Of a DNA stretch of 37,971 nt, positions 6,443 through 37,971 are shown piece by piece (the first letter of the stretch is position 1; every line of letters begins with the position of its first letter). The position numbers were made by a program, and so were the translations under genes. The stretch covers positions 9,495,323-9,533,293 of the forward strand of contig NC_057752.1 of the NCBI RefSeq assembly GCF_004010195.1, read 5' to 3'. The notes beneath the pieces are model-generated. The model did no database searches and was not told the DNA's origin. It worked only from the letters and a program-made list of their open reading frames with translations. The stretch is from Chiloscyllium plagiosum. Lineage: Eukaryota.

Positions 6443-6770
6443 TGGCACGGTGGCTCAGTGATTAGCCCTGCTGCTTCACAGCACCAGGGACCCGGGTTCG
6501 ATTCCAGCCTCTGTCTGGATTTTGCATATTCTCCGTCTGTCTGTCTGTCTGGGTTTCCTCCCACAATCCAAAGATGCACAGGTTAGGTGGATTGGCCATG
6601 CTAAATTGCCCATAATGTTCAGGGATGTTTAGGCTATGTGCATTAGTCAGGGGGAAAATGTAAAGTAATAGTGTAGAGGAATGGGTCTGGGTGGGATACT
6701 CTTTGGAGGCTCACTGTGGACTTGTTGGGCCAAATGGCCTGTTTCCATACTGTAGGGATTCTATGATTCT
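6443..6770 (+). mobile_element. HE1/V-SINE-like tRNA SINE
   Basis: A box (ggtggctcagtg), B box (ggttcgattcc), core shared with 34481-34800, and a gattctatgattct tail. Confidence 0.85.
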
Positions 6771-7523: not shown

Positions 7524-7776
7524 CCCAGCCTTGGGCGACTGTCTGTGTGGAGGTTGTGCATTCTCCTCGTGTCTGCGTGGGTATCCTCCGGGTGCTCCGG
7601 TTCCTCCCACAGTCGAAAGATGTGAAGGTCAGGTGAATTGGCCTTGTTAAATTGCCCCATAGTGTAAGGTGCTTTAGTCAGAGGGAAATGGGTCTGGATG
7701 GGTTACTCTTCGGAGGGTCGGTGTGGATTTGTTAGGCCGAAGGGCCTGTTTCCACACTGTAGGGAATCTAATCTAA
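7524..7776 (+). mobile_element. 5'-truncated HE1/V-SINE-like SINE
   Basis: Core and (AATCT)n tail match 34545-34800. Confidence 0.85.
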
Positions 7777-9901
7777 AGAAAAATTGATTAATGTAAATAT
7801 AAAGGTATAAATGATTACCACTATAAATATCCCCAAAGTGCGCACATTCATCAAGAAAAGCGGAGTTAAAAGATTTCTCTGTCAAGACTAGCTTTTTGAG
7901 GGGGGGGGGTGGAAACTTTGCCTTCTATGCGAACCTATTCGCCAAAAGGATTAAGTGTGGAATGTTTAGGAGTCTGTTGCTTTGATGTTCTGGCATTTGT
8001 GGTCGAGTCACCAATCACGCACAATTGTCTTGAGGTTGTGCAGACCTAGCTTGCACAGGAAATACAACTTTGAGTTCAGTTTCTGTTCAAAGGATCAAAA
8101 AGGTTTCACCCTGAAATCCACAAGGTTTTTTTTTTCCCCTTTTTTAGAAATGGGAGAGATAGCTGAGCAGCTTATTCATAGCATGGTTTTTCTCCAACTT
8201 TGTTTTGTTTTTTAGCAGGTTTCCCTACAATCGAACGAGATAAAACCAGAACCTCTGCAACTCTTGTCATTGTTCCAAAATCGACCCCAACAAGGGCTTA
8301 CAGCAAAGCACACAGTTATCACCAGTTATGATTTTTAGGAAGCCTTGCTGTGAGAAGTATTTTGTTTGAAAGTAAGCGATTCTAAACACAAATCATCTTC
8401 GTATAAGCACCAGGTAAATATCTACAGTAAAACCGGGTATTTCCATTTAATTTGCTATTGTAATGAATCGGGCAGCCTGGTTGCAAAAACCTTTGCTTGC
8501 TCTGTAGAGCACTTTTGTTGTAAAAGTGACTCTATATTCTGGTCAAATTGTATGCGGCAGTGTTGTTTTTATAATTCACCCTGAATTTCAATCTCATTTT
8601 GATTATCTTTGAGCTGTTCGATGTACAAGTAGAGTGGATGATAGCATGTCACCTAATTAGCTATTTATATGTATTTTTCCTCATTCAAAATCCCTAATAG
8701 ATGTGAGCTTTACTCTTGTACTGTTCCTGCAGTTTAGCTCCTGATTATAATGCAGCAACGTTTTAGTATCTGCATTTCCATCCTTTTTTGATGGGTAAAA
8801 CTCCCTTTAATGTGCTTCTTTCAAATGCTCAGATGTCTGTGGTTTGCCATGTGTGATTGTTCATCTGTTGAATGACCTTCTGCTTGGCCTGAAGAGCACT
8901 GTTGCCATGGTGAAAGGGGTTTCAAGAGGTTTTCTGTGTTTAAATACATAGGGGTGTGGATGATTTTTGAATTATAAGCCTTTTATCAATCTGGTTCAGT
9001 TGGCCCTTTTTTTTATTTTTCAATAAAAATATCTTCCTACTTTCAGAATTGATTACATTCCCCCAAATGGCTCAGTCACTGCACTTTCTAGTTAGGCTAA
9101 GGAAACTCTGGTATGATCCCCGTCAATGCTGTATTAGTCGATCGCCTCCTTTTGCATGGTATTTGCAGTGCGTCCATTGGCTCTTCAGTGGCAGTTCTCA
9201 ATTGGAGTTCAGTCTCCTGGCTCCAAGAAATGAGCTTGCTTGAAACTCAAATAAGGCAGTTGTTTCTCTGTGAATTCTGAACAATTTGCCATGATATCCT
9301 GGGTTTTGAATCTGTTTATAATTAGACTATTGTCAGTCACTAGTATCTCTCCATAAAATCTTAGCATGTTAAGTAATGATACCAAAATGGAGGAGAGCAA
9401 AGATGAGATAGCTAAAGCTTCAATGAGAGGAATTGCATGTGAGTATCTTTCCCAAATATGTGTTGGTGGGAGTCATCTTCAAGTATGGTATAGAGGTGTT
9501 ACTGACCTTGTAAAATGATCTTTTATCCAACAAAACAGTTGTTTTTTTTTGTTGTTGGACTAATTGGGATGCAATCATCCACTCTTAGTTGGTGCCTTCA
9601 GTAAAATACCCTTTTTGTGTGCGTTTTTAGCAATCTGGATCTCTGGTGATGAGCCACTTTTAATGATGCAAGAAATTTGCTGGGGCATCATAGTCTGTGT
9701 ACAGACAGCAGAATCTCAGCTCTTTATTGCAGTTCGAAAAGATTTACCTTTTTTTTAATAAATGGAGATTGAAAGGCCTGATAAGTGTACTTTTCTTGAA
9801 ATGCTTCATGGAAGGAACTGAAAGTTCTCTGTTATTGTACAATATGTGTAGCAAGTTACTCTTGAGCTTCTGATTGCCGACTGGGTTTATAAACATGATT
9901 A

Positions 9902-11599: not shown

Positions 11600-14030
11600 T
11601 TTTAAAGGTGAAAGTCAGAGAAGGAAAGTTCAAGGTTGTGGTCTATTCTTCCTGCTCAATGGGAAGTCAGGCACAGTTCCAGTGCCAGAATGTATCCTGG
11701 AACTGTTTTCAGCAGCAACTCCTGGAAGCCTGGGTTTCTGAGCTGGAGCGGCAGCTGGGGACTCTGTGTACGTGCTGTCTGCTACTTGCAGCTTTGTGGA
11801 TGCTCTGCAGAGGTGGTCACGCTGCATGGGCAGAAAGGGAATGGGTAATCACCCTGCACAGTAAAAGGACTAGGCAGGCTATGCAAGAGTCTCCTGTGAC
11901 TACTCCCCTTGTAAAACACACCTACCACATTGGATACTGTTGAGGGGAATGGCCTTTCAGGCGAGTCGCAACAGCCAAATTTGTTGCACCACAGTTGACT
12001 CTGCTGAATGGGAAAGCAGGAATGCAAGGAAAAGCTAAAGTAATAAGGGGTTCAATTGCAATAGGAATCGATAGATATTTCTGTGGCCTCAAACCAGATT
12101 TCAGGATGGTATGTTGCCTCCTAGGTGCTAGGGTCAAGTTTGTCTCGGGGGCTACAGGACCTTCTGGATGGGAGGGTGAACAGGCAGTGGTCATGTTACA
12201 CATTGATACCAGCAACGTAGGACCTCCATTCCTTTTTCTTTTAAATCTAAGAGCAGAATATAGGGACTTAGGAAGTGGGGTTTTAAAAAATAGGACCTCC
12301 AAAGGTAGTGATCTCACTGGTTGCTACCAGTGCCACATGCTAGTCAGAGTAGAAGTAGCTGGATATATCAGTTCAATCAGTGGCTGGAGAGATGGTGAAG
12401 GGGGAGGGTTTCAGTTTCCTCAGATCTTGGGACTGGATCTGGGGGGGATGGCCCAGTACAGATTGGATAGGATCCACCTGGACAGGACCAGGACTGATGT
12501 CCTAGGAAGGAAATGCCAGTGTTTGTTGGGGAGGGTTTAAACTGAAATGGCAGGGGGATTGGAAACTATACAAGGAGATAGAAGAGAAGGAAACAGGACA
12601 AAAACAAAAGACTGAATGGGAAATAAGAAAGTGATTAGGCTAAGAATTAAAAGGCAAGGATATCTGGGCCACATGTGGCAAAATGAGAATGGGACTAAAT
12701 GTTTGAAAAGACCAGACTTTAAGGCCTTGTGTCTTAATGTGCAGAACATTCAATAGACAATAGGTGCAGGAGTAGGCCATTCAGCCCTTCGAGCCTGCAC
12801 CGCCATCCAATATAATCATGGCTGATCATTCCTAATCAGTATCCTGTTCCTGCCTTATCTCCATAACCCTTGATTCCACTATCTTTGAGAGCTCTATCCA
12901 ACTCCTTCTTAAATGAATCCAGAGAGTGGGCCTCCACTGCCCTCTGGGGCAGAGCATTCCACACAGCCACCACTCACTGGGTGAAGAAGTTNNNNNNNNN
13001 NNNNNNNNCTCGTGAACCTACGCTGCACTCCTTCAATAGCCAGAATGTCTTTCCTCAAATTTGGAGACCAGAACTGCACGCAGTACTCCAGGTGTGGCCT
13101 TACCAGTGTTTTGTACAGCTGCAGAAGCACCTCTTTGCTTCTGTACTCAATTCCTCTTGTTATGAAGGTCAGCATGCTATTAGCCTTCTTCACTACCTGC
13201 TGTACCTGCATGCTTGCCTTCATTGACTGGTGTACAAGAACACCCAGATCTCTCTGTACTGCCCCTTTACATAAATTGATTCCATTGAGGTAGTAGTCTG
13301 CCTTCCTGTTCTTGCCACCAAAGTGGATAACCATACATTTATCCACATTAAACTGCATCTGCCCACTCACCTAACTTGTCCAGGTCACCCTGTAATCTCC
13401 TAACATCCTCATCACATTTCACCCTGCCACCCAGCTTTGTATCATCGGCAAATTTGCTAATGTTATTGCTGATACCATCTTCTATATCATTAACATATAT
13501 TGTAAAAAGCTGCGGTCCCAGCACGGATCCCTGCGGTACTTTATTCATAATAAAGTGGATGAATTGATCACTGACATAGATGTGAATGGGTTTAATATAG
13601 TTGGGATTATGGAAAAATGGCTGCAGGGTGACCAGGGATGGGAACTGAATATCCCAGGGGCATTCCATTTTTAGGTTGGACAGATGAAAAAGAAATGAAG
13701 GTGGGGTAGCATTGCTGGTTAAAAAGGAATTAACACCAACATGAGAGAATATTAGATCTGGTGAAGTGTAGTCTGAGCTTAAAAACACCAAGGGGCAGAA
13801 AATGATAGGGTGTTGGATGTAATGGTAATGTGGGGAAGGCATTAAACAAGACATTTTTAGAAATGCAAACAACAAAAATACAGCTGTAGTTATGGATGAT
13901 GTTAATCCCCATCGAGATTAGGCAAATCAAATCAGTAACAAAACCTTTTTAGAGGAGGAATTCCTGAAGTGTATGGGATGGTTTTCAGGATCACTAGGTT
14001 GCAGAACCAACTAGAGAACAGGCCATTCTG
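11600..14030 (+). mobile_element. Older CR1 LINE 5' portion (ORF1 esterase-like region plus APE endonuclease start), split by the younger CR1 at 12751-13536
   Basis: ORF1-like RMVCCLLGARVK and RLDRIHLDRTRTDVL. Endonuclease-like KALCLNVQNI|NKVDELITDIDVNGFNIVGIMEKWLQGDQGWELNIPG resumes after 13540. Many frameshifts. Confidence 0.75.
12751..13536 (-). mobile_element. Young 5'-truncated CR1 LINE
   Basis: [19 protein letters not shown]...SKFADDTKLGG, then MQFNVDKC...RDLGV...LYKTLVRPHLEYCVQFWSP. Ends in a (CTATTGT) repeat tail at 12751. Confidence 0.92.
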
Positions 14031-14844: not shown

Positions 14845-15033
14845 CCCTCAATCCCTGTAACCCTGCATCTCCCATGGCTAATTCACCTAACCAACACATC
14901 TTTGGATTGTGGGAGGAATCCCACACAGACGTGGAAAATGTGCAAGCTCCATACAGCCAGTCACCTGAGGATGGAATCTAACCCAGGTCCCTGGTGCTGT
15001 AAGGCAGCAATGCTAACCACTGAGTAACTGCCG
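14845..15033 (-). mobile_element. HE1/V-SINE-like SINE fragment
   Basis: Reverse complement has the tRNA head (ctcagtggttagcattgctgcct) and the V-SINE core. Confidence 0.75.
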
Positions 15034-15981
15034 CTCAAATGTCCTGTAAGGTTTCAATGTCTGCACATAGTAGAAGTTTAGTCATCTTTGAATAGATTGT
15101 AATAGTGTGAAATACCCTCGAATCTGTTAATGTGCTACCTTCGTGGCTGTTGGTTTTCTTTACTGTCCTGAGCGTAGGTGAGTTGCATATATAGTACAGC
15201 ATTGTATAACAGGGATCATTGTTGCATAAAAGCTGATATTGTTGTACAGCAACGTTTGGAAACTACCTCCCAGCCCCCACCATTGCACATGGCCTCCTGT
15301 CAAGCTGATCCTTGCCCTCCAGCAGCTCAACCCTGTCGACTGAAATTGGAGTTTGTCATTTCAGTCATGTAGTGTTGTGAAACATGTGAACCTGTGCGTT
15401 TCTGTGGAAAGCTGTTCCTCTTGTTATGACGCTGCAAATCCTACATTGTTTTGGCTGTTGTATTTCTAAATATTAGCTATGGCACATTTATTCTGTCATC
15501 TTCGCAATACCTGAGGAATGATAGCTGTTTGGTGGGTGCTGGCTACCCTCCTATAATACCTAGCTGAAGTAGCTATTCCACAGGATGGGCGCACACATTG
15601 CAGTAGAAGTCACTGGACTGTGTTTAAAAACAATGCTGCAACCCACCCTGCTTTGAATGGGCATAGCCTGCTGAACAACCTAAAATACAACTGAAGAGCA
15701 GAGGGTCTGTTTTTGATGCACTGGTAGACAATTCAAAAGTGACAGCTGTAAATCGGTCAGTAATGCAATGAATGTCATCTCTGGATTCATATTTAGAAGC
15801 ATGGGATGCAAAAGCAAAGGCTCCATGTTGGGCTTAGAGGGCCTCGCTGCAGCTGGAGTTTTGGATGTAGCTTGACAACTTGAAGCTTTCATTTCAAGAA
15901 TTGAGATGGTTGAGTGGTGATCTGACTGAGATCTTTTGCGATTAAGGTTACAACCAGGTAACTTTTTTTGATGAAATACCA

Positions 15982-16725: not shown

Positions 16726-17356
16726 CTTAAAAAGTGCTTTCGCCTTCAATTGGACTGTATCCAGTTTTGAAAGAGTGATGGACTAGGTGGTCGTTCCCAT
16801 TCGTCTCTGGACTGGGACCCAGATCCATACTATACAGAGTTCTTTTGATACACAACCCCATAGATTCTGCATTCCACAAATACAAAATTACTAAAACCAA
16901 CTCTGCTATTTGTGTTTGAAGATGCTTTTATGTGGAGAGATTTTTGGGATTTGGATTCCAGGGAGCTCGTGTTGAGTTGGCTCCTAGTTTTTGTATGCCC
17001 AACTCCCCCATTCATTTGGCAGGATCTGGTTCTGCCACAAGGGGAAGGAAAGCTTAAAGGCAGGAGCCCAGCTTGAATACCTGTCTCTGGGAATTCAAAT
17101 TAAGCTGATGGTGTAGGCACTGTTGTACTGGTTCTACCTTGTTGCAGTAGGTTGTGGGAAAGCTCAGAATTGAGGGCCAAAAGTATGTTGTATTTGTTGG
17201 TGATTATCAGGAATTCAAGAGAAAGTTTCTTTCCTAGAAAGTGAGGAGAATGTGTAGCTTGCTACCATTTTAAGCCAAATGGCTTGATTTTGTGCTGTGA
17301 ATTTTTAGGAGTGTAGCCATTGTTGAGATCACATTCTGCTTTTATTGGTTGGAAAT

Positions 17357-17570
17357 GGTCAGATGTCACATGACACCAGGTTATAGTCCAACAGGTTTAT
17401 TTGAAATAACAAGCTTTTGGAGTGCTACTCCTTCGTCAGCTAACACTACTTCGCCTAATGAAGGAGCAGCACTCCAAAAGCTTGTGATTTCAAATAAACC
17501 TGTTGGACTATAACCTGGTGTCATGTGACATCTGACCTTGTCCAGCCCAGTCCAACACTGGCACCACCTC
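17357..17570. mobile_element. Palindromic Penelope-like insertion (~83-bp arms) with a TSD
   Basis: Arms 17357-17439 and 17455-17537 are near-perfect reverse complements. Flanks ATTGGTTGGAA at 17344 and 17571. Confidence 0.75.
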
Positions 17571-25320: not shown

Positions 25321-25610
25321 TAAGTTACTTCACCTAGATTTGAGCATTTTATTTTGGGGGTGGGGTAGAGAAAGCAATATTTTTGGCATCCCTTGTCCTT
25401 AAATATCCTGAACACTGCATTTTTTTTTTATGTTTCAATTCCGCTTTTATGTCCTCTAGTAAAACAAAATTGCGTCCCACATCACACCATGCCGTACGTT
25501 TTTGAACGTTGTCAGTTATCGCTGGAGCGGTGTCTGCAAACCTTAAATTCATGCTAATGTATTCTCTTTCTTTCTTTCTTTCTTTTCTCTCTTTCTTTCC
25601 TTCCTCTCAG

Positions 25611-25741
25611 TCTCCTGATGAGAAAAGACTTGAAGGCCTGTCAAAACAGCTTGACTGGGATGTCCGCAAAATTCAGCGTTGGTTTCGACATCGAAGGAAT
25701 CAAGATAAACCAAGTACCCTCACAAAATTTTGTGAGAGCAT
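25611..25741 (+). CDS. CERS5: Ceramide synthase exon encoding the Hox-like domain, [43 protein letters not shown](M)
   Basis: Long CT tract ending ctcag at 25610 and AT|gtacgc donor. 131 bp, phase 0 in and phase 2 out. [13 protein letters not shown] and TKFCESM resemble CERS5 more than CERS6 (RSIQ, RQRRNQEKP, TRFCESM). Confidence 0.93.
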
Positions 25742-26559
25742 GTACGCCTTTTTTTCTCTTTTTTTTTTTNNNNNNNNNNNNNNNNTTTTTTTTTTTCCTT
25801 CCCCCCCCCCCCCCCCTCTCTCTTAACTGTTGTTGAGTCTTCAATTGAATTCCATTAAACTTAGTTAAGGCCTATTGTGCGATATTCCTGCTACTGTAAT
25901 TGCAGTTTCGGTTCATACGGGTGAGCATTCATGCATTTCTGAAAACAAGTCTTGTAGACAACTGATAATCTTCATGTAAACCCTTTGTTCTGTCCTCCTT
26001 TAACTGTGCTAGTTAGTACTTTACCTGGGGGGGGGAAAATAAAAGTCTATGCAATTTGTGCTTCTGATTTCCTTCCCAAACTACTTCTGAAAAGATCTGC
26101 ATTGTAGGCTTTGCAAAAGAAAGCCACCAATTGAAGGATGAAGATGCAAATGAAATGGTGGTGCCTTTCCTAATATTCTTTCCTTAGAACATCCAGATTA
26201 TTTCCAAGATTTCTCTAAAAGAATAGTGGATGTTGTTGGCATGTGATGCACATTTATTATTTTGTATGTTTCTTTTTAATGTATAATCTTCCACCACACC
26301 TACATCCAGAAATTGGAATGGAGTTGGCCCATAATTGGGGCAACTGGTTTACGGTGACTGAACAAGTGAAATTTTTTTTCTTTTTTGATTAATTGCACAA
26401 GGAATCATTTTGTAGGCTTGACCCCAATGGTTGAAATGACCGCGAGTGAGCGAAAATGTAGTCGTCATAAGTGTTTGGCAGTTGTCTTGTCTTGATATTT
26501 TAATGCTCCTAATACTGCCAACTCTTGCGTAAGCTTTTCAATCTGCTGGACAGGAAATA

Positions 26560-30913: not shown

Positions 30914-30971
30914 GTGGAGACTTGTATTTTATTTCTATATATTCTTCTATGGAGTGAGATTTCTATGGAAG
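30914..30971 (+). CDS. CERS5: Ceramide synthase exon at the start of the TLC domain, (M)WRLVFYFYIFFYGVRFLWK
   Basis: ttgcag acceptor (ends 30913) and AAG|gtaagt donor. 58 bp. Its first G completes the ATG split from the previous exon, giving the conserved FCESMWR motif. Confidence 0.92.
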
Positions 30972-31274
30972 GTAAGTGCTGTTATGTGTGTGTGTCTATA
31001 AATCTGCACCACCCTGCCCCAAAGGGAAGAAAACATTTTTTAATTTTTTAATCTTGATTAAAAGAAAAAGAATCATAGGATATCCTCCTTAGAGGAGCAA
31101 TGGTCCGACAAAGTTACTGATGTGCAGTATAGGGGGCATTCTGCAATAAGTTACGATTGTGTTCTGTTGCTTACCAATGTAACTCTAATAGAGTAAATTT
31201 ACTTATGCTTTGCAGATATAGTTGAGGGGGAGTGGTGGAAGATGTGTACTGTTTACTTGCCAATCAAAGTAAAG

Positions 31275-32520: not shown

Positions 32521-32804
32521 CATAAATATTCACTAGTACTTTATTCTCCTCCTACATTTACACTATAGTGCAAATACATTTTAGTCACTCTTTATGGCTG
32601 CGTTATCCTGCCCAGCAGTGTATACATGACTGCCAATGTAGTTCCCATGGGCAGCTGTTTCTAATGGGCTTCCTGCTGCGAGCACAGTGTGCCTTGCTGT
32701 CTGTGCCAATTGGGTTTGTGTAGAAAAACATTGAATGAATGAAAAACAAACCTAAAGACCCCACCTACACACCCCTCTACAGAGGCTGGTATCCCGTCAC
32801 CAAA

Positions 32805-33718
32805 TTTGATAAGGTGCCCCATGGTAGGCTCATTGAGAAGGTCAGGAGGAATGGGATACAGGGGAACTTAGCTGTCTGGATACAGAATTGGCTGGCCAAC
32901 AGAAGACAGCGAGTGATAGTAGAAGGAAAATATTCTGCCTGGAAGTCCGTGGTGAGTGGTGTTCCACAGGGCTCTGTCCTTGGTCCTCTACTGTTTGTAA
33001 TTTTTATTAATGACTTGGATGAGGGCATTGANNNNNNNNNNNNNNNNNNNNNNNNNNNNNNNNNNNNNNNNNNNNNNNNNNNNNNNNNNNNNNNNNNNNN
33101 NNNNNNNNNNNNNNNNNNNNNNNNNNNNNNNNNNNNNNNNNNNNNNNNNNNNNNNNNNNNNNNNNNNNNNNNNNNNNNNNNNNNNNNNNNNNNNNNNNNN
33201 NNNNNNNNNNNNNNNNNNNNNNNNNNNNNNNNNNNNNNNNNNNNNNNNNNNNNNNNNNNNNNNNNNNNNNNNNNNNNNNNNNNNNNNNNNNNNNNNNNNN
33301 NNNNNNNNNNNNNNNNNNNNNNNNNNNNNNNNNNNNNNNNNNNNNNNNNNNNNNNNNNNNNNNNNNNNNNNNNNNNNNNNNNNNNNNNNNNNNNNNNNNN
33401 NNNNNNGCATAGATAGAGTCGATAGCCAGAGACTATTTCCCAGGGCAGAAATGACTAACACGAGGGGTTATAGTTTTCAGCTGGTTGGAGGAAAGTATAG
33501 AGGGGATGTCAGAGGCGGGTTCTTTACACAGTTGAGAGAGCATGGAATGCGCTGCCAGCAGCAGTTGTGGAAGCAAGGGCATTGGGGACATTTAAGAGAC
33601 TGCTGGACATGCATATGGTCACAGAAATTTGAGGGTGCATACATGAGGATCAGTGGTTGGCACAACATCGTGGAGTGAAGGGCCTGTTCTGTGCTGTACT
33701 GTACTGTTCTATGTTCTA
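32805..33718 (+). mobile_element. 5'-truncated CR1 LINE (RT C-terminus and 3' end) with an assembly gap, inserted in the LTR
   Basis: FDKVPHGRL...[22 protein letters not shown], then IDRVDSQRLFP...RGGFFTQ. Ends in a (TTCTATG)-like tail. N run at 33032-33406. Confidence 0.9.
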
Positions 33719-34025
33719 AATCGCCCTTTATTTACATGTGGAGAGTCCTTGACACTGATCCAGCTCTGTGAACAGAACCGCTGACACTCCTGTTCTTTTT
33801 TGTTAACCCAAAAAAAAAACATTTTTAAAAGTCTACCTGAAACAAGGGGGAGAGAAAAAGAAAACTCTCCTCCTTAGTAGGAAACCCAACAGCAGTAATA
33901 ACATACTGACTATATGGTCCAGGCAGTTCAGAGGTCAGTCCCCTCTCTCAAAATGAAGAGTCTTTTACCATTGTTCCAGCTCCCTCAGAGGCACCTCTGA
34001 GTGAACAGAACCTCTGACACTCCTG

Positions 34026-34193
34026 TTTTTTTTCTATTTTTTTCAAAATCTTCCCCCATACCACTGCCTAAGTGCGGTAGTGCTTATTTTTCCCCAGCAC
34101 CCATGTCATGTGTGTGCAGGTGTCAGACACGGCGAAGAACAAGAAGTGTGCAAATCTTCCTTTCTTCCTAGTGGTGGAATATAAATAAAGATA
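34026..34193 (-). mobile_element. Diverged Tx1 3'UTR fragment with a 5' inversion
   Basis: 34026-34158 is antisense 3'UTR. 34159-34192 (cctttcttcctagtggtggaatataaataaagat) is the adjacent upstream UTR segment in the opposite orientation. Confidence 0.75.
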
Positions 34194-34231
34194 CTTTTTT
34201 TTACACCTGAGTGGCCAGTGATATATTCCTG

Positions 34232-35557
34232 TTTTTTTTTCCCCTTTATTAACCCCCACACTACTGCCTAAGTGCGGTAGTGCTTATTTTTCCCCAGCAC
34301 CCATGGTGTGTGTGCAGGTGTGATACACAGTGAGAGACACAAGGTGTATGAATCTTTATTCAAATTCCACCACCAGGAAGATAGGAAAACACCCGGGTGG
34401 CCAGTGACAAACACTCCCCTTCACATCAAAGGGCAGTGCTGTGTGATCAAACAGCGAAGGGGAGGGTAGGGACTAAATGTGGGCGGCACGGTGGCGCAGT
34501 GGTTAGCACTGCTGCCTCACAGCGCCTGAGACCCGGGTTCAATTCCCGCCTCAGGCGACTGACTGTGTGGAGTTTGCACGTTCTCCCCGTGTCTGCGTGG
34601 GTTTCCTCCGGGTGCTCCGGTTTCCTCCCACAGTCCAAAGATGTGCAGGTAAGGTGAATTGGCCATGCTAAATTGCCCGTAGTGTTAGGTAAGGGGTAAA
34701 TGTAGGGGTATGGGTGGGTTTCGCTTCGGCGGGTCGGTGTGGACTTGTTGGGCCGAAGGGCCTGTTTCCACACTGTAATGTAATCTTTGTAATCTAATCT
34801 AAATCAAAATAGAGTTGGAGGGAGAAATGATGCACTCCACTCCCTGTGGCGCCCACCTCTCCATGAACAACTCCAGGGTGTTGGTCGACACCGTGTGCTC
34901 CTTCTCCAAGGACACCCGGGCCCTAACGTAACCGCAGAAGAGGGGCAGGCAGTCGGCCCTAATGGCCCCCTCCACGGCCCGCTGCCTCGACCTGTTGATG
35001 GCCAGTTTGGCCAGGCCCAGGAGCAGACCCACGAGGAGGTCTTCAGACCTGCCCTCCCTCCTCCGTACCGGGTGCCCAAAGATCAGGAGCGTGGGACTGA
35101 AGTGCAACCAAAAGCAGAGGAGGAGGTTTTTCAAAATCAAAAAGGGAGTGCAAACGCCGACACCCAATATACATGTGGTCCACGGACTCCACAGCGCCAC
35201 AGAACAAGCAGTTGGGCTGGGAGTCCGTGAACCACCGCAATCTGCGGTTGCAGGGGACTGCTGCGTGCAGCACCCTCCACCCCAGATCCCCGAGAGAAAG
35301 GGGGAGGACTCCCGCGTAGAGAGCCCTCCACTGGGGATCCCCACCGCCCGGTGGCAAATGGGCATGCCAAGGCGTGTCCGGACGGTGGATGAGGGAGAAG
35401 AGGTGGACGGTGTGCAGCAGCAGTCTATACAGGGCCCTCCTTTTTACCCCCTGGAAGGGAACAAAATTAAAATTCCGGAGGCGGCTCAGGTTGTGGGGCA
35501 CAGGCTCCCGCGGGAAGTACGGGACCTTGGGGCCAATGTGAAATTCCGTCCAGGCTG
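34232..35557 (-). mobile_element. 5'-truncated Tx1-clade (L1 superfamily) non-LTR retrotransposon: ORF2 C-terminus with zf-RVT, 3'UTR and poly(A), interrupted by a SINE
   Basis: Translation ...DLGWRVLHAAVPCNRRLRWFTDSQPNCLFCGAVESVDHMYIGCRRL..., a frameshift near 35135, then ...LLLGLAKLAINRSRQRAVEG...ERWAPQGVECIISPSNSILI* (stop 34799-34801). The CxxC-H-C knuckle and C-terminus are typical of Tx1 ORF2. Confidence 0.85.
34481..34800 (+). mobile_element. Young full-length tRNA-derived SINE (HE1/V-SINE-like) nested in the Tx1 copy
   Basis: A box GGTGGCGCAGTGG (~34490), B box GGTTCAATTCC (~34536), V-SINE core (gtgtggagtttgcacgttctccccgtgtctgcgtgggtttcctccggg), CpG-rich, (TAATC)n tail. CTAAAT is duplicated on both sides. 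Confidence 0.9.
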
Positions 35558-35571
35558 TAAACTGTTGTACG

Positions 35572-36473
35572 TTTTTTTTTTGACAAGAAGCACAGTCATT
35601 TATTTCTCTGAACAGTTTACACAGTGAGTCAACAGGGAGTGCAAATGACATTCAGTAATTCCAGGCTTAGGGTCTGCGCTGAGTCCTTGCTGAATCTTGG
35701 GATGCATGGAATGAATCCGGTTCCTCTGGAGAAAGGGGAAATTGTTCCAAAGATCTTTGTTCCTTTCCTGCACCTAGGCAGCAAGGAATTATCTGGGCTG
35801 ATTTGGTGACAGTGCATGTGGTGAAGAGCAGAAGCTCCAGCTTCAGGAGATGTTGTTTGTGGGACCTTAATGATGCCGAGGTCTCTAACAGATCAACAAC
35901 ACTGGTGAGAACAAATCTATCCGCTGGCTTCGATCTCCTCTGAATCATATTTGAAGTCCTGAAGAACCTCATTAATTGCCTCAATGGTTTTCCTAATCTG
36001 CTTCAGTTCTCGGGCCTCCTCCTGGTAGGTCTCATTGCCTGGATGGTCCAACATATTCTGCTTGGCAAGTTGTCGCCTGGTTGTCAATTCTAGCTTTTCC
36101 TGTTCCCGTTCCTGAACTCTCGTGATGTGCTCAGAGAGATCTGGGTGATCATACTCCTCATGAAACCGGTCCTTGAGCTGAATCACTTCCTTGGAGATCC
36201 GGTTAAATGCCTGGGTGATTTCGTGCACCAGCTGCCGGTATTTGATAAAGTTATAGTTGGGAGCAGAGCGGAGATACGCCTGATGTCCTAGATCAAAAAG
36301 CCGATAAGCTTCAACACGCTCCTCCTGTAATGCATAAAGGGTCCGCACCAGTGTATTCAGTCCATTTGCAATCATCCTCCATCCAGAGCGCGACTGGCTC
36401 AGGGACTTGCTCCTGTCAGCCGCCTGGTCCTCCTGCGACAGCAACAACTCAGGCCAGGCTGCGTTACTGCAGG
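35572..36473 (-). pseudogene. REX1BD: Processed retrocopy of REX1BD (C19orf60) mRNA: 5'UTR, uninterrupted ORF, 3'UTR, AATAAA and poly(A), flanked by a TSD
   Basis: Intronless ORF with ATG at 36375 and stop ending at 35917. AATAAA on the minus strand at 35599-35604, A10 tail at 35572-35581. Flanked by TAAACTGTTGTAC (35558-35570) and CAAACTGTTGTTC (36474-36486). Confidence 0.85.
35917..36375 (-). CDS. REX1BD: Open 152-aa ORF of the REX1BD retrocopy (required-for-excision 1-B domain protein); expression unknown
   Basis: Motifs LQEERVEAY, GHQAYLRSAPNYNFIKYRQLVHEITQAF, VQEREQEKL and KTIEAINEVLQDFKYD match the REX1B/C19orf60 family as recalled (human GHRQYLRSGPDYDFARYR...KTMEAISEVLQDLRFD). No internal stop. 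Confidence 0.75.
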   Translation of the reverse strand: MIANGLNTLVRTLYALQEERVEAYRLFDLGHQAYLRSAPNYNFIKYRQLVHEITQAFNRISKEVIQLKDRFHEEYDHPDLSEHITRVQEREQEKLELTTRRQLAKQNMLDHPGNETYQEEARELKQIRKTIEAINEVLQDFKYDSEEIEASG

Positions 36474-36486
36474 CAAACTGTTGTTC

Positions 36487-36669
36487 TTTATTTTTTTTTC
36501 AGTGAAAGACACAGTGCACGAATCTTTATTCAAATTCCACCACCGGGAAGATAGGAAAACACCCGGGTGGCCAGTGACAAACACTGCCCTTCACATCAGA
36601 GGGCAGTGCTGTGTGATCAAAACAGTGAGGGGGAGGGTAGGGACTAAATCAAAATAGAGTTGGAGGGAG
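36487..36669 (-). mobile_element. Tx1 3' fragment polyadenylated at the proximal AATAAA
   Basis: Same 3'UTR (gggtggccagtgacaaacactgcccttcacatc...gggactaaatcaaaatagagttggaggga). Flanked by exact CAAACTGTTGTTC at 36474 and 36670. Confidence 0.85.
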
Positions 36670-36746
36670 CAAACTGTTGTTCGTTTTTTTTTTTTTTTTA
36701 CACTCACAATAGGCAAACACTCAAGTGGCCAGTGACCAAACTGTTC

Positions 36747-37042
36747 TTTTTTTAATAATTCAACCCCCACACTACCACCTAAGTGCGGTAGTGCTTATTT
36801 TATCCCCAGCACCCATGGTGTGTGTGTGCAGGTGTGAGACACAGTGGAAGACACAAAGTGCACCAATCTTTATTCAATTTCCACCACCAGGAAGATAGGA
36901 AAACACCCGGGTGGCCAGTGACAAGCACTGCCCTTCACATCAAAGGGCAGTGCTGTGTGATCAAAACAGTGAAGGGGAGGGTAGGGACTAAATCAAAATA
37001 GAGTTGGAGGGAGAAATAATGCACTCCACTCCCTGCTGCGCC
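36747..37042 (-). mobile_element. Tx1 3' fragment (last ~17 ORF2 codons plus full 3'UTR and poly(A))
   Basis: Near-identical to 34232-34478 plus 34801-34853. Bounded by caaactgttc (36737-36746) and caaactgttgttc (37043-37055). Confidence 0.85.
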
Positions 37043-37158
37043 CAAACTGTTGTTCTTGTCTGTCAGCTAGGGCTCCCTGATTGGACCAGATTAATAGCTG
37101 TAATTAGGGAACTCCTATTCTGAGGTCCATCTGGCTGTTCTCATTACAATCACCCACA

Positions 37159-37971
37159 TCCTTCCCCCTCTGAGTCAGAGGACATAGGCCTGTTCTTTTT
37201 TATTTCTCCTTGTGGTTCCTCCTGCACCGGTTCGAGTTTCTCCAACTCTGCCTGTGGTGCACAGTCGCTCACCTCTTGCATCCAGAGCATTGTTATACCT
37301 CTAGTAGAGTTGCTAATCAAATAGGAACTGGGATAGTTTGGTATCTAGTAAAGCTGTAGGCTGTTTCTTTTAGCCAGCCTTCAAAGTTTGGACTGCACTT
37401 TCTTTCAGACAAACGGTTGATGGATGGCATGGAGCTGTCCTTGTACGCTGAATACCATTCGACTTTAGGGAATTCTCTAATTCTAAATGATGGCCTGTTA
37501 TCTGTGACCAGCACTTCTGGGAATCTGTATATTGCAAACGATGCACACAGTTTTTCTATCATCTTTCCCGTGTTTGACAAATGAACTCTGCGCGTTCAGT
37601 GACATTGAGTGGGCGACTACAGTGACTGAACATAAAGTCCATGATGTGGGGGAGCTGCTACCAGTTATTTTTGTGTTTGTTGGCACCCTGGGCACTATCC
37701 CCATCAATGCGGCTATGGCTTCATTCAGTCCTGGTTACCAGACATAACGTCTTGTCAACGTCTTCATTTTGGATACCCCTGGATGACCCCGGTGGTGTTC
37801 AGCCAGTATCTGGCAGCGACCTTTGCTCAGGACAATCACTCTTGCTCCCATAATCATGTGTCATCCTGTACTGTGATCTGGTCTGTGTCCAAAAAAGTTT
37901 CAATTCTTTGGGTGAAGATTTGTAGCTCGGGTGCTCGTTGTTGTGGTTCTGTTCACCGAGCTGGAAATTTT
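37159..37971 (-). mobile_element. Degenerate Gypsy/Ty3 pol, integrase region, plus PPT
   Basis: Minus-strand reading gives LAEHHRGHPGVSKMKTLTRRYVW*PGL...CPGCQ (integrase H2C2 zinc domain) and IEKLCASFAIYRFPEVLVTDNRPSF (rve core), with stops and frameshifts. Runs off the window end. Confidence 0.85.

Follow-up and report, generated by a model that had tools for sequence, protein, structure and literature searches.

Repeated insertion of a Tx1-type LINE and a host mRNA copy at one point of an apparent Gypsy-type LTR in Chiloscyllium plagiosum

Introduction

The closest described systems are crocodilian. Kojima (2015) described Tx1 families of crocodilians with a preference for LTR retrotransposons, as well as tandem insertions with a common duplication (PMC4494074). 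Tx1-8_Crp and Tx1-4_AMi, to which we liken the shark LINE by their described LTR preference, group with Keno, and the main text names neither an LTR family nor a position for them (PMC4494074). A family is classed there as target-specific when >20% of its copies are flanked by the target (PMC4494074). As at the locus described here, Tx1-Mar and SINEU-3 always lie at one position and in one orientation within Mariner-N4_AMi, a transposon that is old and disrupted; tandem insertions sandwich one duplication, and other RNAs reach the same site; for Tx1-Mar, transcription from the target is also discussed (PMC4494074). The Tx1-Mar target is, however, described as a DNA transposon with snRNA-derived SINEs as passengers, whereas here we find an apparent LTR and a protein-coding mRNA. 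In Xenopus laevis, Tx1L inserts at one site inside another transposon, Tx1D, using a sequence-specific endonuclease (PMC1950540, PMC4494074) that is reported to nick almost solely its own target in vitro (PMC1950540). We set Tx1L beside the shark LINE by description; its target is a piggyBac-type DNA transposon, unlike the LTR considered here.

A search that was thin on subscription papers and Repbase reports found no paper on this shark LINE family. For passengers of cellular origin, the relevant comparison is L1, which makes processed pseudogenes as poly(A)-primed copies of spliced mRNAs between site duplications, and whose 5′ inversions arise via twin priming.

Results

We analyzed a window of 37,971 nt from Chiloscyllium plagiosum (contig NC_057752.1), part of which is contained in 20 of the 24 sequencing runs listed, with no RNA run listed as containing it. 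The window stops at 37971, on the integrase side of a Gypsy-type LTR retrotransposon. Stops and frame changes interrupt every one of the three frames of its decayed integrase region (37172..37971, minus strand). A profile search of the window matched Integrase_H2C2 (E=9.8e-07, 29.2 bits versus a cut-off of 25.5); the zinc-binding domain lies at ~37710-37820 and the integrase core is fragmented. Atlas features for the region gave an agreement of 0.97 with recognition below threshold, and a PDB search returned no significant match. A 13-nt polypurine tract follows (PPT; 37159..37171, minus strand), with TG immediately after it (37158); because the window holds eight purine tracts with TG directly after, the weight of this one comes from its place beside the integrase. 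The upstream, U3-like half of the LTR (103 bp; 37056..37158, minus strand) starts with this TG and contains CCAAT. On the far side of the array, also on the minus strand, a downstream LTR part (33719..33795) continues into AATAAA (33732-33727). The ~50 bp downstream of the break is duplicated: the outer copy, with its end at 33795, is the one continuous with AATAAA and is missing 17 nt, and up to this deletion the inner copy (33976..34027, minus strand) matches it at 27/30 nt. Both flanking sequences quoted in the first-pass annotation are present, although the left one, ending at 34027, proves to be the inner copy.

The arrangement is Gypsy-type: pol closes with the integrase, the PPT and LTR follow on the same strand, and there is no env. 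The flanks resemble the 3′ LTR of such an element. Both array edges share GAACA with AA before it (5–7 letters), as a split and duplicated site would be expected to give. On the LTR strand, the break lies 24 nt after the end of CCAAT and 64 nt ahead of AATAAA, in keeping with the position first proposed; the TATA box expected at the break is absent from this LTR copy, which reads GACAAGAA. As first annotated, the distal part of the LTR is divided by a 5′-truncated LINE (32805..33718, plus strand; RVT_1 E=9.4e-10), which we take to be CR1-type from its tail and RT rather than from a tree, and which holds a 375-N assembly gap (33032-33406). Behind it lies the probable distal LTR remainder (32740..32804, minus strand). 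The initial proposal of a ~260-bp TG…CA LTR beside a PPT and integrase keeps its PPT, TG and Integrase_H2C2, but not its CA end: the 75 nt behind the CR1 contain four CA dinucleotides, no complement of the LTR start (5 or 6 letters) occurs within 305 nt, and a length of 245-262 bp is an estimate because it hangs on picking the CA at 32740. From anatomy alone we infer that the two halves form one LTR. Pattern scans of viral contigs, prokaryote genomes and metagenome contigs found no uninterrupted LTR copy, with 0 stretches in viral contigs and 0 in prokaryote genomes; all 29 of the 29 metagenome matches were discarded as chance, because only 19-30 nt were shared and the flanks were unrelated.

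Eight poly(A)-tailed units sit at one point of the LTR, all in its orientation (minus strand): four 5′-truncated Tx1-type pieces, one REX1BD mRNA copy, two short related tails and one unit of unassigned origin. Their 5′ ends and poly(A) sites vary. Counting from the U3-like half, unit 1 (36747..37043) is a Tx1-type 3′ end of ~290 bp plus A7 that shares 93-95% identity with units 3 and 5, a range that holds for the 3′ UTR segments shared by the three. Unit 2 (36684..36737), a 38-bp tail plus A16, resembles a central stretch of the 3′ UTR of the LINE (24/28 nt). Unit 3 (36487..36670) is a Tx1-type piece that ends at an inner poly(A) site, its AATAAA starting 31 nt before the tail, and matches unit 1 at 143/150 nt. 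The longest Tx1-type piece, unit 5 (34232..35558), comprises the final 253 ORF2 codons with a single frame change near 35135, the 3′ UTR and A9. Nested within it, as delimited by its junctions and a 6-bp duplication, is a tRNA-headed SINE (34479..34798, plus strand), presumably an HE1-like V-SINE, which entered unit 5 later on the opposite strand and has other copies in the window at 6444, 7525 and 14873. Unit 6 (34195..34225), bounded by its junctions, is a very short tail resembling unit 2 plus A8, and keeps an LTR-type duplication at its 5′ junction. Unit 7 (34026..34194), the most diverged Tx1-type 3′ end (83-90% identity to units 1 and 5), has an inverted 5′ piece (34157-34192) and adjoins the LTR downstream half. 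Unit 8 (33796..33975) is an A-tailed 174-bp insert with no match elsewhere in the window or in Rfam; Rfam likewise gave no credible match for units 1-3 and 6-7. The divergence gradient along the array is weak and could reflect subfamilies. What was first read as a Tx1 stack does contain Tx1-type units, but it is mixed, holding a host mRNA copy and the nested SINE.

That host copy, unit 4 (35572..36474, minus strand), is an A-tailed, intron-less copy of the mRNA of REX1BD (C19orf60), matching Pfam DNA_repr_REX1B (E=1.6e-29) and the Chiloscyllium plagiosum REX1BD protein (94% amino acid identity). It is near full-length, with AATAAA 23 nt ahead of the tail; one codon is lost and conserved columns are changed. 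The lack of introns, which we take the parent gene to have, the poly(A) after AATAAA, the flanking duplication and the decay make unit 4 a probable processed pseudogene. Selection on its reading frame was considered and rejected, because conserved residues are altered. The copy and the 5′ inversion of unit 7 resemble L1-made pseudogenes and twin priming; L1, in contrast, scatters over a short consensus, whereas this copy lies at the array's fixed site.

The repeated unit is supported as a Tx1-type LINE. The C-terminal ORF2 piece has 180 relatives at E<=0.001, and proteins of whale shark, sturgeon and turtle join it in one cluster with 100/99 support. Its full-length relatives, at 30-34% identity, go by the name Transposon TX1 and combine an endonuclease with RT and zf-RVT; among the closer subgroup, the searches recovered no full-length member. 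The zf-RVT match in unit 5 falls just below its cut-off (E=6.9e-06, 27.1 versus 27.5 bits), and the units share the poly(A) tail, 5′ truncation and site duplication of the Tx1 clade. All are 5′-truncated, with no Tx1-type endonuclease or RT left in the window. All four clear LINE copies in the window lie at the site (one locus), and the other ~33 kb holds no further piece of this LINE. LINE 3′ UTR patterns gave 0 stretches in viral contigs and 0 in metagenome contigs, the scans yielding no second array, and a search of proteins by word index, with the ORF2 piece as query, yielded none among 636 candidates. The ORF2 tail aligned with one viral locus over 34 residues (41%). The fold of the LINE's 3′ end beats shuffles in only one of four sequences.

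A 12-bp site duplication recurs between the units on the minus strand, with its outermost copy at 37044..37055, further copies at 36671-36682, 36475-36486 and 35559-35570, and a 9-bp form at 36738-36746. The 12-mer has four exact matches in the window, all within the array, versus 0.03 expected; because the search pattern came from the array itself, only three repeats count. Ten of 14 matches to its 8-letter core lie off the junctions (chance expectation 7.8), and an empty 9-letter core match lies at 37190, 135 nt upstream of the site. The inheritance of the duplication suggests that the site is rebuilt with each insertion. In sequence the 12-mer is largely non-LTR, with the LTR accounting for only a part of it. 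An origin of its extra letters in unit 5's own ORF2 is not favored, because a whale-shark relative has other residues there, in one distant comparison. Given this mixed composition, and since an A-tail followed by the 12-mer might serve as a target in its own right, the order within units 1-4 is unproven.

Discussion

We favor, with a probability of about 0.7, the reading that a LINE of the Tx1 clade, whose APE endonuclease would be sequence-selective, repeatedly hits one promoter-region site of a Gypsy-type LTR, based on an array at one locus. The LTR-like flanks, the Tx1-type units and their single point and orientation uphold the Gypsy LTR target first proposed, with anatomy joining its halves. 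The endonuclease would nick one site in the promoter region across the LTR family, and target-primed reverse transcription would then carry out the insertion, in every case in the LTR sense direction. Priming on poly(A) tails would deliver the LINE's own truncated RNAs and, as a consequence, sometimes a host mRNA. Each insertion would duplicate the bases after the nick and thereby rebuild the site. The earliest units would have duplicated native LTR sequence; the new 12-mer would then have arisen at unit 5's 5′ junction and been inherited by the four units upstream of it, which would imply a nick probably set by upstream sequence and the first few downstream bases, with a second cut probably placed by distance. 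Because the LTR looks like a relic, the LINE's gain would be a harmless multicopy landing site. Inactivation of the LTR element, an earlier suggestion, is unsupported: its integrase, with stops and several frame changes, is far more decayed than the LINE copies, which show one frame change in unit 5's 253 codons and 93-95% identity over the 3′ UTR segments that three units share.

The same array might be built by an abundant, loosely selective LINE that reads a short AA/GAACA-type motif, with the LTR as a hot spot and stacks growing by self-targeting as each A-tail and duplication creates another good site. The largely non-LTR character of the inherited 12-mer and the resemblance of the inner junctions to the site agree with this scenario. 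We nevertheless consider it unlikely, because 9-12 empty cores of 7-8 letters lie elsewhere in the window, yet no dispersed copy occurs in ~33 kb, and because three insertions, units 6-8, would have gone into the native LTR site before the 12-mer arose.

Ty3 and TRE5-A reach Pol III promoters by tethered targeting, and the break 24 nt past CCAAT, at the position of a TATA element, and the apparently promoter-side arrival of new units would suit tethering to proteins that occupy the LTR promoter instead of DNA recognition by the endonuclease. Such tethering is highly improbable here: the site in this copy lacks a TATA box, the LTR element is a relic, and base-exact reuse fits reading by the endonuclease, as shown for Tx1L. 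We give equally little credence to flanks from unrelated repeats or to an array made by local duplication or misassembly. The scans found no uninterrupted LTR, the CA end was not found and an assembly gap lies within the CR1; against this, PPT-TG-CCAAT stands on one side and AATAAA on the other with edge letters common to both, the units are 5-17% different with varied ends and include a host mRNA, and no tandem repeat is called at the array.

A further, rather doubtful proposal would make the LINE a promoter parasite. Sense insertion behind the CCAAT/TATA region, with the newest copy nearest the promoter, would let full-length copies be transcribed from the LTR and would place host mRNAs behind a ready promoter; if the inferred order holds, the REX1BD copy would once have had the promoter half immediately in front of it. 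Were this true, sharks would have a directed route to expressed retrogenes, and each array would be a dated stack of insertions.

Because an LTR-preferring crocodilian Tx1 has already been described, this locus adds a clear further case without establishing a new principle. The range of LTR-preferring Tx1 elements would now cover crocodilians and sharks, with a base-exact site, and a protein-coding mRNA has been delivered to a fixed site. The array is also a natural record of site-selective LINE cutting, in which the duplicated sequence switched partway through and the new form was passed on, a hint that distance sets the position of the second cut. An intact member of the family would offer a new APE specificity beside the few examined so far in targeted insertion.

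Eight A-tailed units in a putative Gypsy-type 3′ LTR

The sequences on either side of the array have what appears to be the anatomy of a minus-strand Gypsy-type 3′ LTR (upstream half 37056..37158, downstream half 33719..33795), which we infer to have been contiguous before the array and a CR1 element each interrupted it once. At the window end, a profile search of the minus strand identified an Integrase_H2C2 zinc domain over the cut-off (E = 9.8e-07), and the integrase-like pieces that follow it are scattered in three frames and interrupted by stops. A 13-nt purine tract then precedes a TG at 37158; because this combination occurs 8 times within the window, the tract is informative through its position only. 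The first-pass annotation had described a TG...CA LTR, and its TG start stands; for its CA end four CA dinucleotides are candidates, none with an inverted-repeat match of at least 5 letters to the LTR start. Its placement of the break between a CCAAT box and an AATAAA is borne out, as the first insertion lies 24 nt beyond the CCAAT end and the AATAAA lies 64 nt past the last insertion (minus strand), whereas the examined LTR copy has no TATA box at the break, about where that annotation expected a TATA box or start site. The same few letters are found at both array edges. Scans for the LINE's 3′ UTR in viral and metagenome contigs, and for the LTR in these and in prokaryote genomes, yielded no second array and no unbroken LTR copy. 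At 37945-37965 (+), 21 nt match 33759-33779 in inverted orientation (20/21, BLAST E = 1.6e-4, to the shortened LTR form); this is either coincidence or the margin of an LTR fragment in reverse orientation.

The array (33796-37055) consists of eight A-tailed units, numbered from the promoter side, all in the LTR's sense; if orientations were independent, this agreement would arise about once in 128 cases. Units 1, 3, 5 and 7 are copies of a single LINE family with different 5′ ends. Identity is 93-95% among the 3′ UTR segments common to units 1, 3 and 5 and 83-91% among the terminal segments of units 1, 5 and 7; unit 3 terminates at an inner poly(A) signal. The 5′ piece of unit 7 is inverted (34157-34192), a pattern seen with twin priming. 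Units 2 and 6 (36700-36737 and 34203-34225, minus strand) are very short tails whose starts resemble the central part of the LINE's 3′ UTR and whose ends differ; they possibly represent a related family or a SINE whose tail is shorter.

Unit 4 (35572-36474, minus strand) corresponds to an almost complete REX1BD mRNA and is enclosed by the array's 12-bp duplications. Its best match is a Chiloscyllium plagiosum protein (94%), which places the DNA in a shark near the bamboo sharks. The frame is open, yet conserved residues are altered and one codon is lost, and we therefore regard the copy as a pseudogene. Unit 8 (33796-33975, minus strand) has no match elsewhere in the window and no credible Rfam match. 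It is flanked by an unusually long LTR duplication of about 50 bp, with the inner copy at 33976-34027; the outer copy has lost 17 nt, which in the inner one make up a hairpin. Within unit 8, CAG follows a pyrimidine tract, as in a splice acceptor. Unit 5 is interrupted on the opposite strand by a later arrival, a tRNA-headed SINE (34479-34798) with its own 6-bp duplication, which did not use the array site; three further copies lie at 6444-6763, 7525-7787 and 14873-15040. Tandem duplication does not account for the array's mixed units, and a tandem repeat caller found no repeat in it.

The plus strand carries two exons, a homeodomain exon (25605-25742) and then a hydrophobic one (30915-30972), of a gene that we take to belong to the ceramide synthase family. 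Since no further exon was found after these two within the window, the array and the Gypsy relic probably lie in an intron of this gene, antisense to it. Elsewhere, long near-perfect inverted repeats at 1589-2467 and 17347-17547 (arms 60-93 nt, 92-98% complementary) may be fold-back or MITE-like elements, or SINEs that have been rearranged, and a second CR1-type RT fragment lies in pieces at 12909-13917 (-).

Assignment of the LINE family

In unit 5 the final 253 codons of ORF2 survive with a single frame change, along with a zf-RVT match slightly under the curated cut-off. This piece has 180 relatives at E ≤ 0.001. We built a tree from 29 C-terminal pieces out of 271 proteins, hand-picked for closeness or a name, in which unit 5 clusters with whale-shark, sturgeon, turtle and unnamed proteins (support 100/99), the whale-shark row filling only 22% of the alignment columns. 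The remaining 20 rows stand at about 30-34% identity, some of them named Transposon TX1, and two full-length proteins among them bear an endonuclease, an RT and a zf-RVT. Judged by its ORF2 C-terminus, the part left in window copies that lack endonuclease and RT, the LINE is very probably of the Tx1 clade, given the zf-RVT match, the relatives, the tree grouping and the Transposon TX1 proteins with the full domain set. PMC3747384 describes Tx1 as the target-specific branch next to L1.

Site selectivity and order of insertion

A 12-letter pattern derived from the array junctions themselves matches four times in the window, each time within the array, versus 0.03 expected; at a fifth junction the form is 9 letters long. 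The 8-letter core of the pattern has 14 matches, 4 at junctions and 10 elsewhere, close to the 7.8 expected, and no part of units 1 and 5 was matched outside the array within the window. A 9-letter core match at 37189-37197, just upstream of the polypurine tract and 135 nt upstream of the site, is empty and serves as a natural negative control. Together, these core matches and the confinement of LINE pieces to the array indicate that the short core is insufficient for insertion. The three downstream units stand on native LTR sequence. In the five upstream units the 12-mer is present instead, and its second half has no counterpart in the downstream LTR. In the simplest history, the 5′ junction of unit 5 would have created the 12-mer, subsequent insertions would have copied it, and every insertion would regenerate the site. 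Such creation and inheritance suggests that bases upstream direct the first nick and that distance determines the second cut. Unit 7 is the most diverged, in weak agreement with this order; inner junctions may have been reused, so that units 1-4 may have arrived in another order.

The array is real, and from this one locus we give a probability of roughly 0.7 to its being the product of a target-selective Tx1 family that uses a Gypsy-type LTR site. The main rival is a loosely selective LINE at a self-reinforcing hot spot: regeneration of the site would feed it, the empty core matches and the lack of LINE pieces in the rest of the window speak against it, and we consider it unlikely. A bolder reading is that the family captures the LTR promoter and thereby delivers retrogenes in a directed way; we hold this to be unlikely too.

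Known Tx1 systems offer partial parallels. PMC4494074 describes an old Mariner element hit at fixed positions and in fixed orientation, tandem SINEU-3 copies that enclose one duplication, and the mobilisation of further RNAs to this site; transcription from the target is also discussed there. It reports two LTR-preferring crocodilian families as well, Tx1-8_Crp and Tx1-4_AMi, whose LTR targets, named in its supplements, may make them a closer or a more distant precedent. The Tx1L endonuclease nicks almost exclusively its own target, according to PMC1950540. A literature search that left most subscription papers and Repbase outside its range found no paper on this shark family and none on a protein-coding retrocopy at a Tx1 site.

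Sitting in a 3′ LTR, an array that carries poly(A) signals would probably cut transcripts short, and the first-pass annotation had proposed that insertion could inactivate the LTR element. The Gypsy copy is far more decayed than the LINE copies, which speaks against that proposal: the element was probably dead before most insertions, and the locus is better read as a relic that offers a safe place to land. The most useful details of the locus are its mRNA passenger and a duplication sequence that changes midway through the array.
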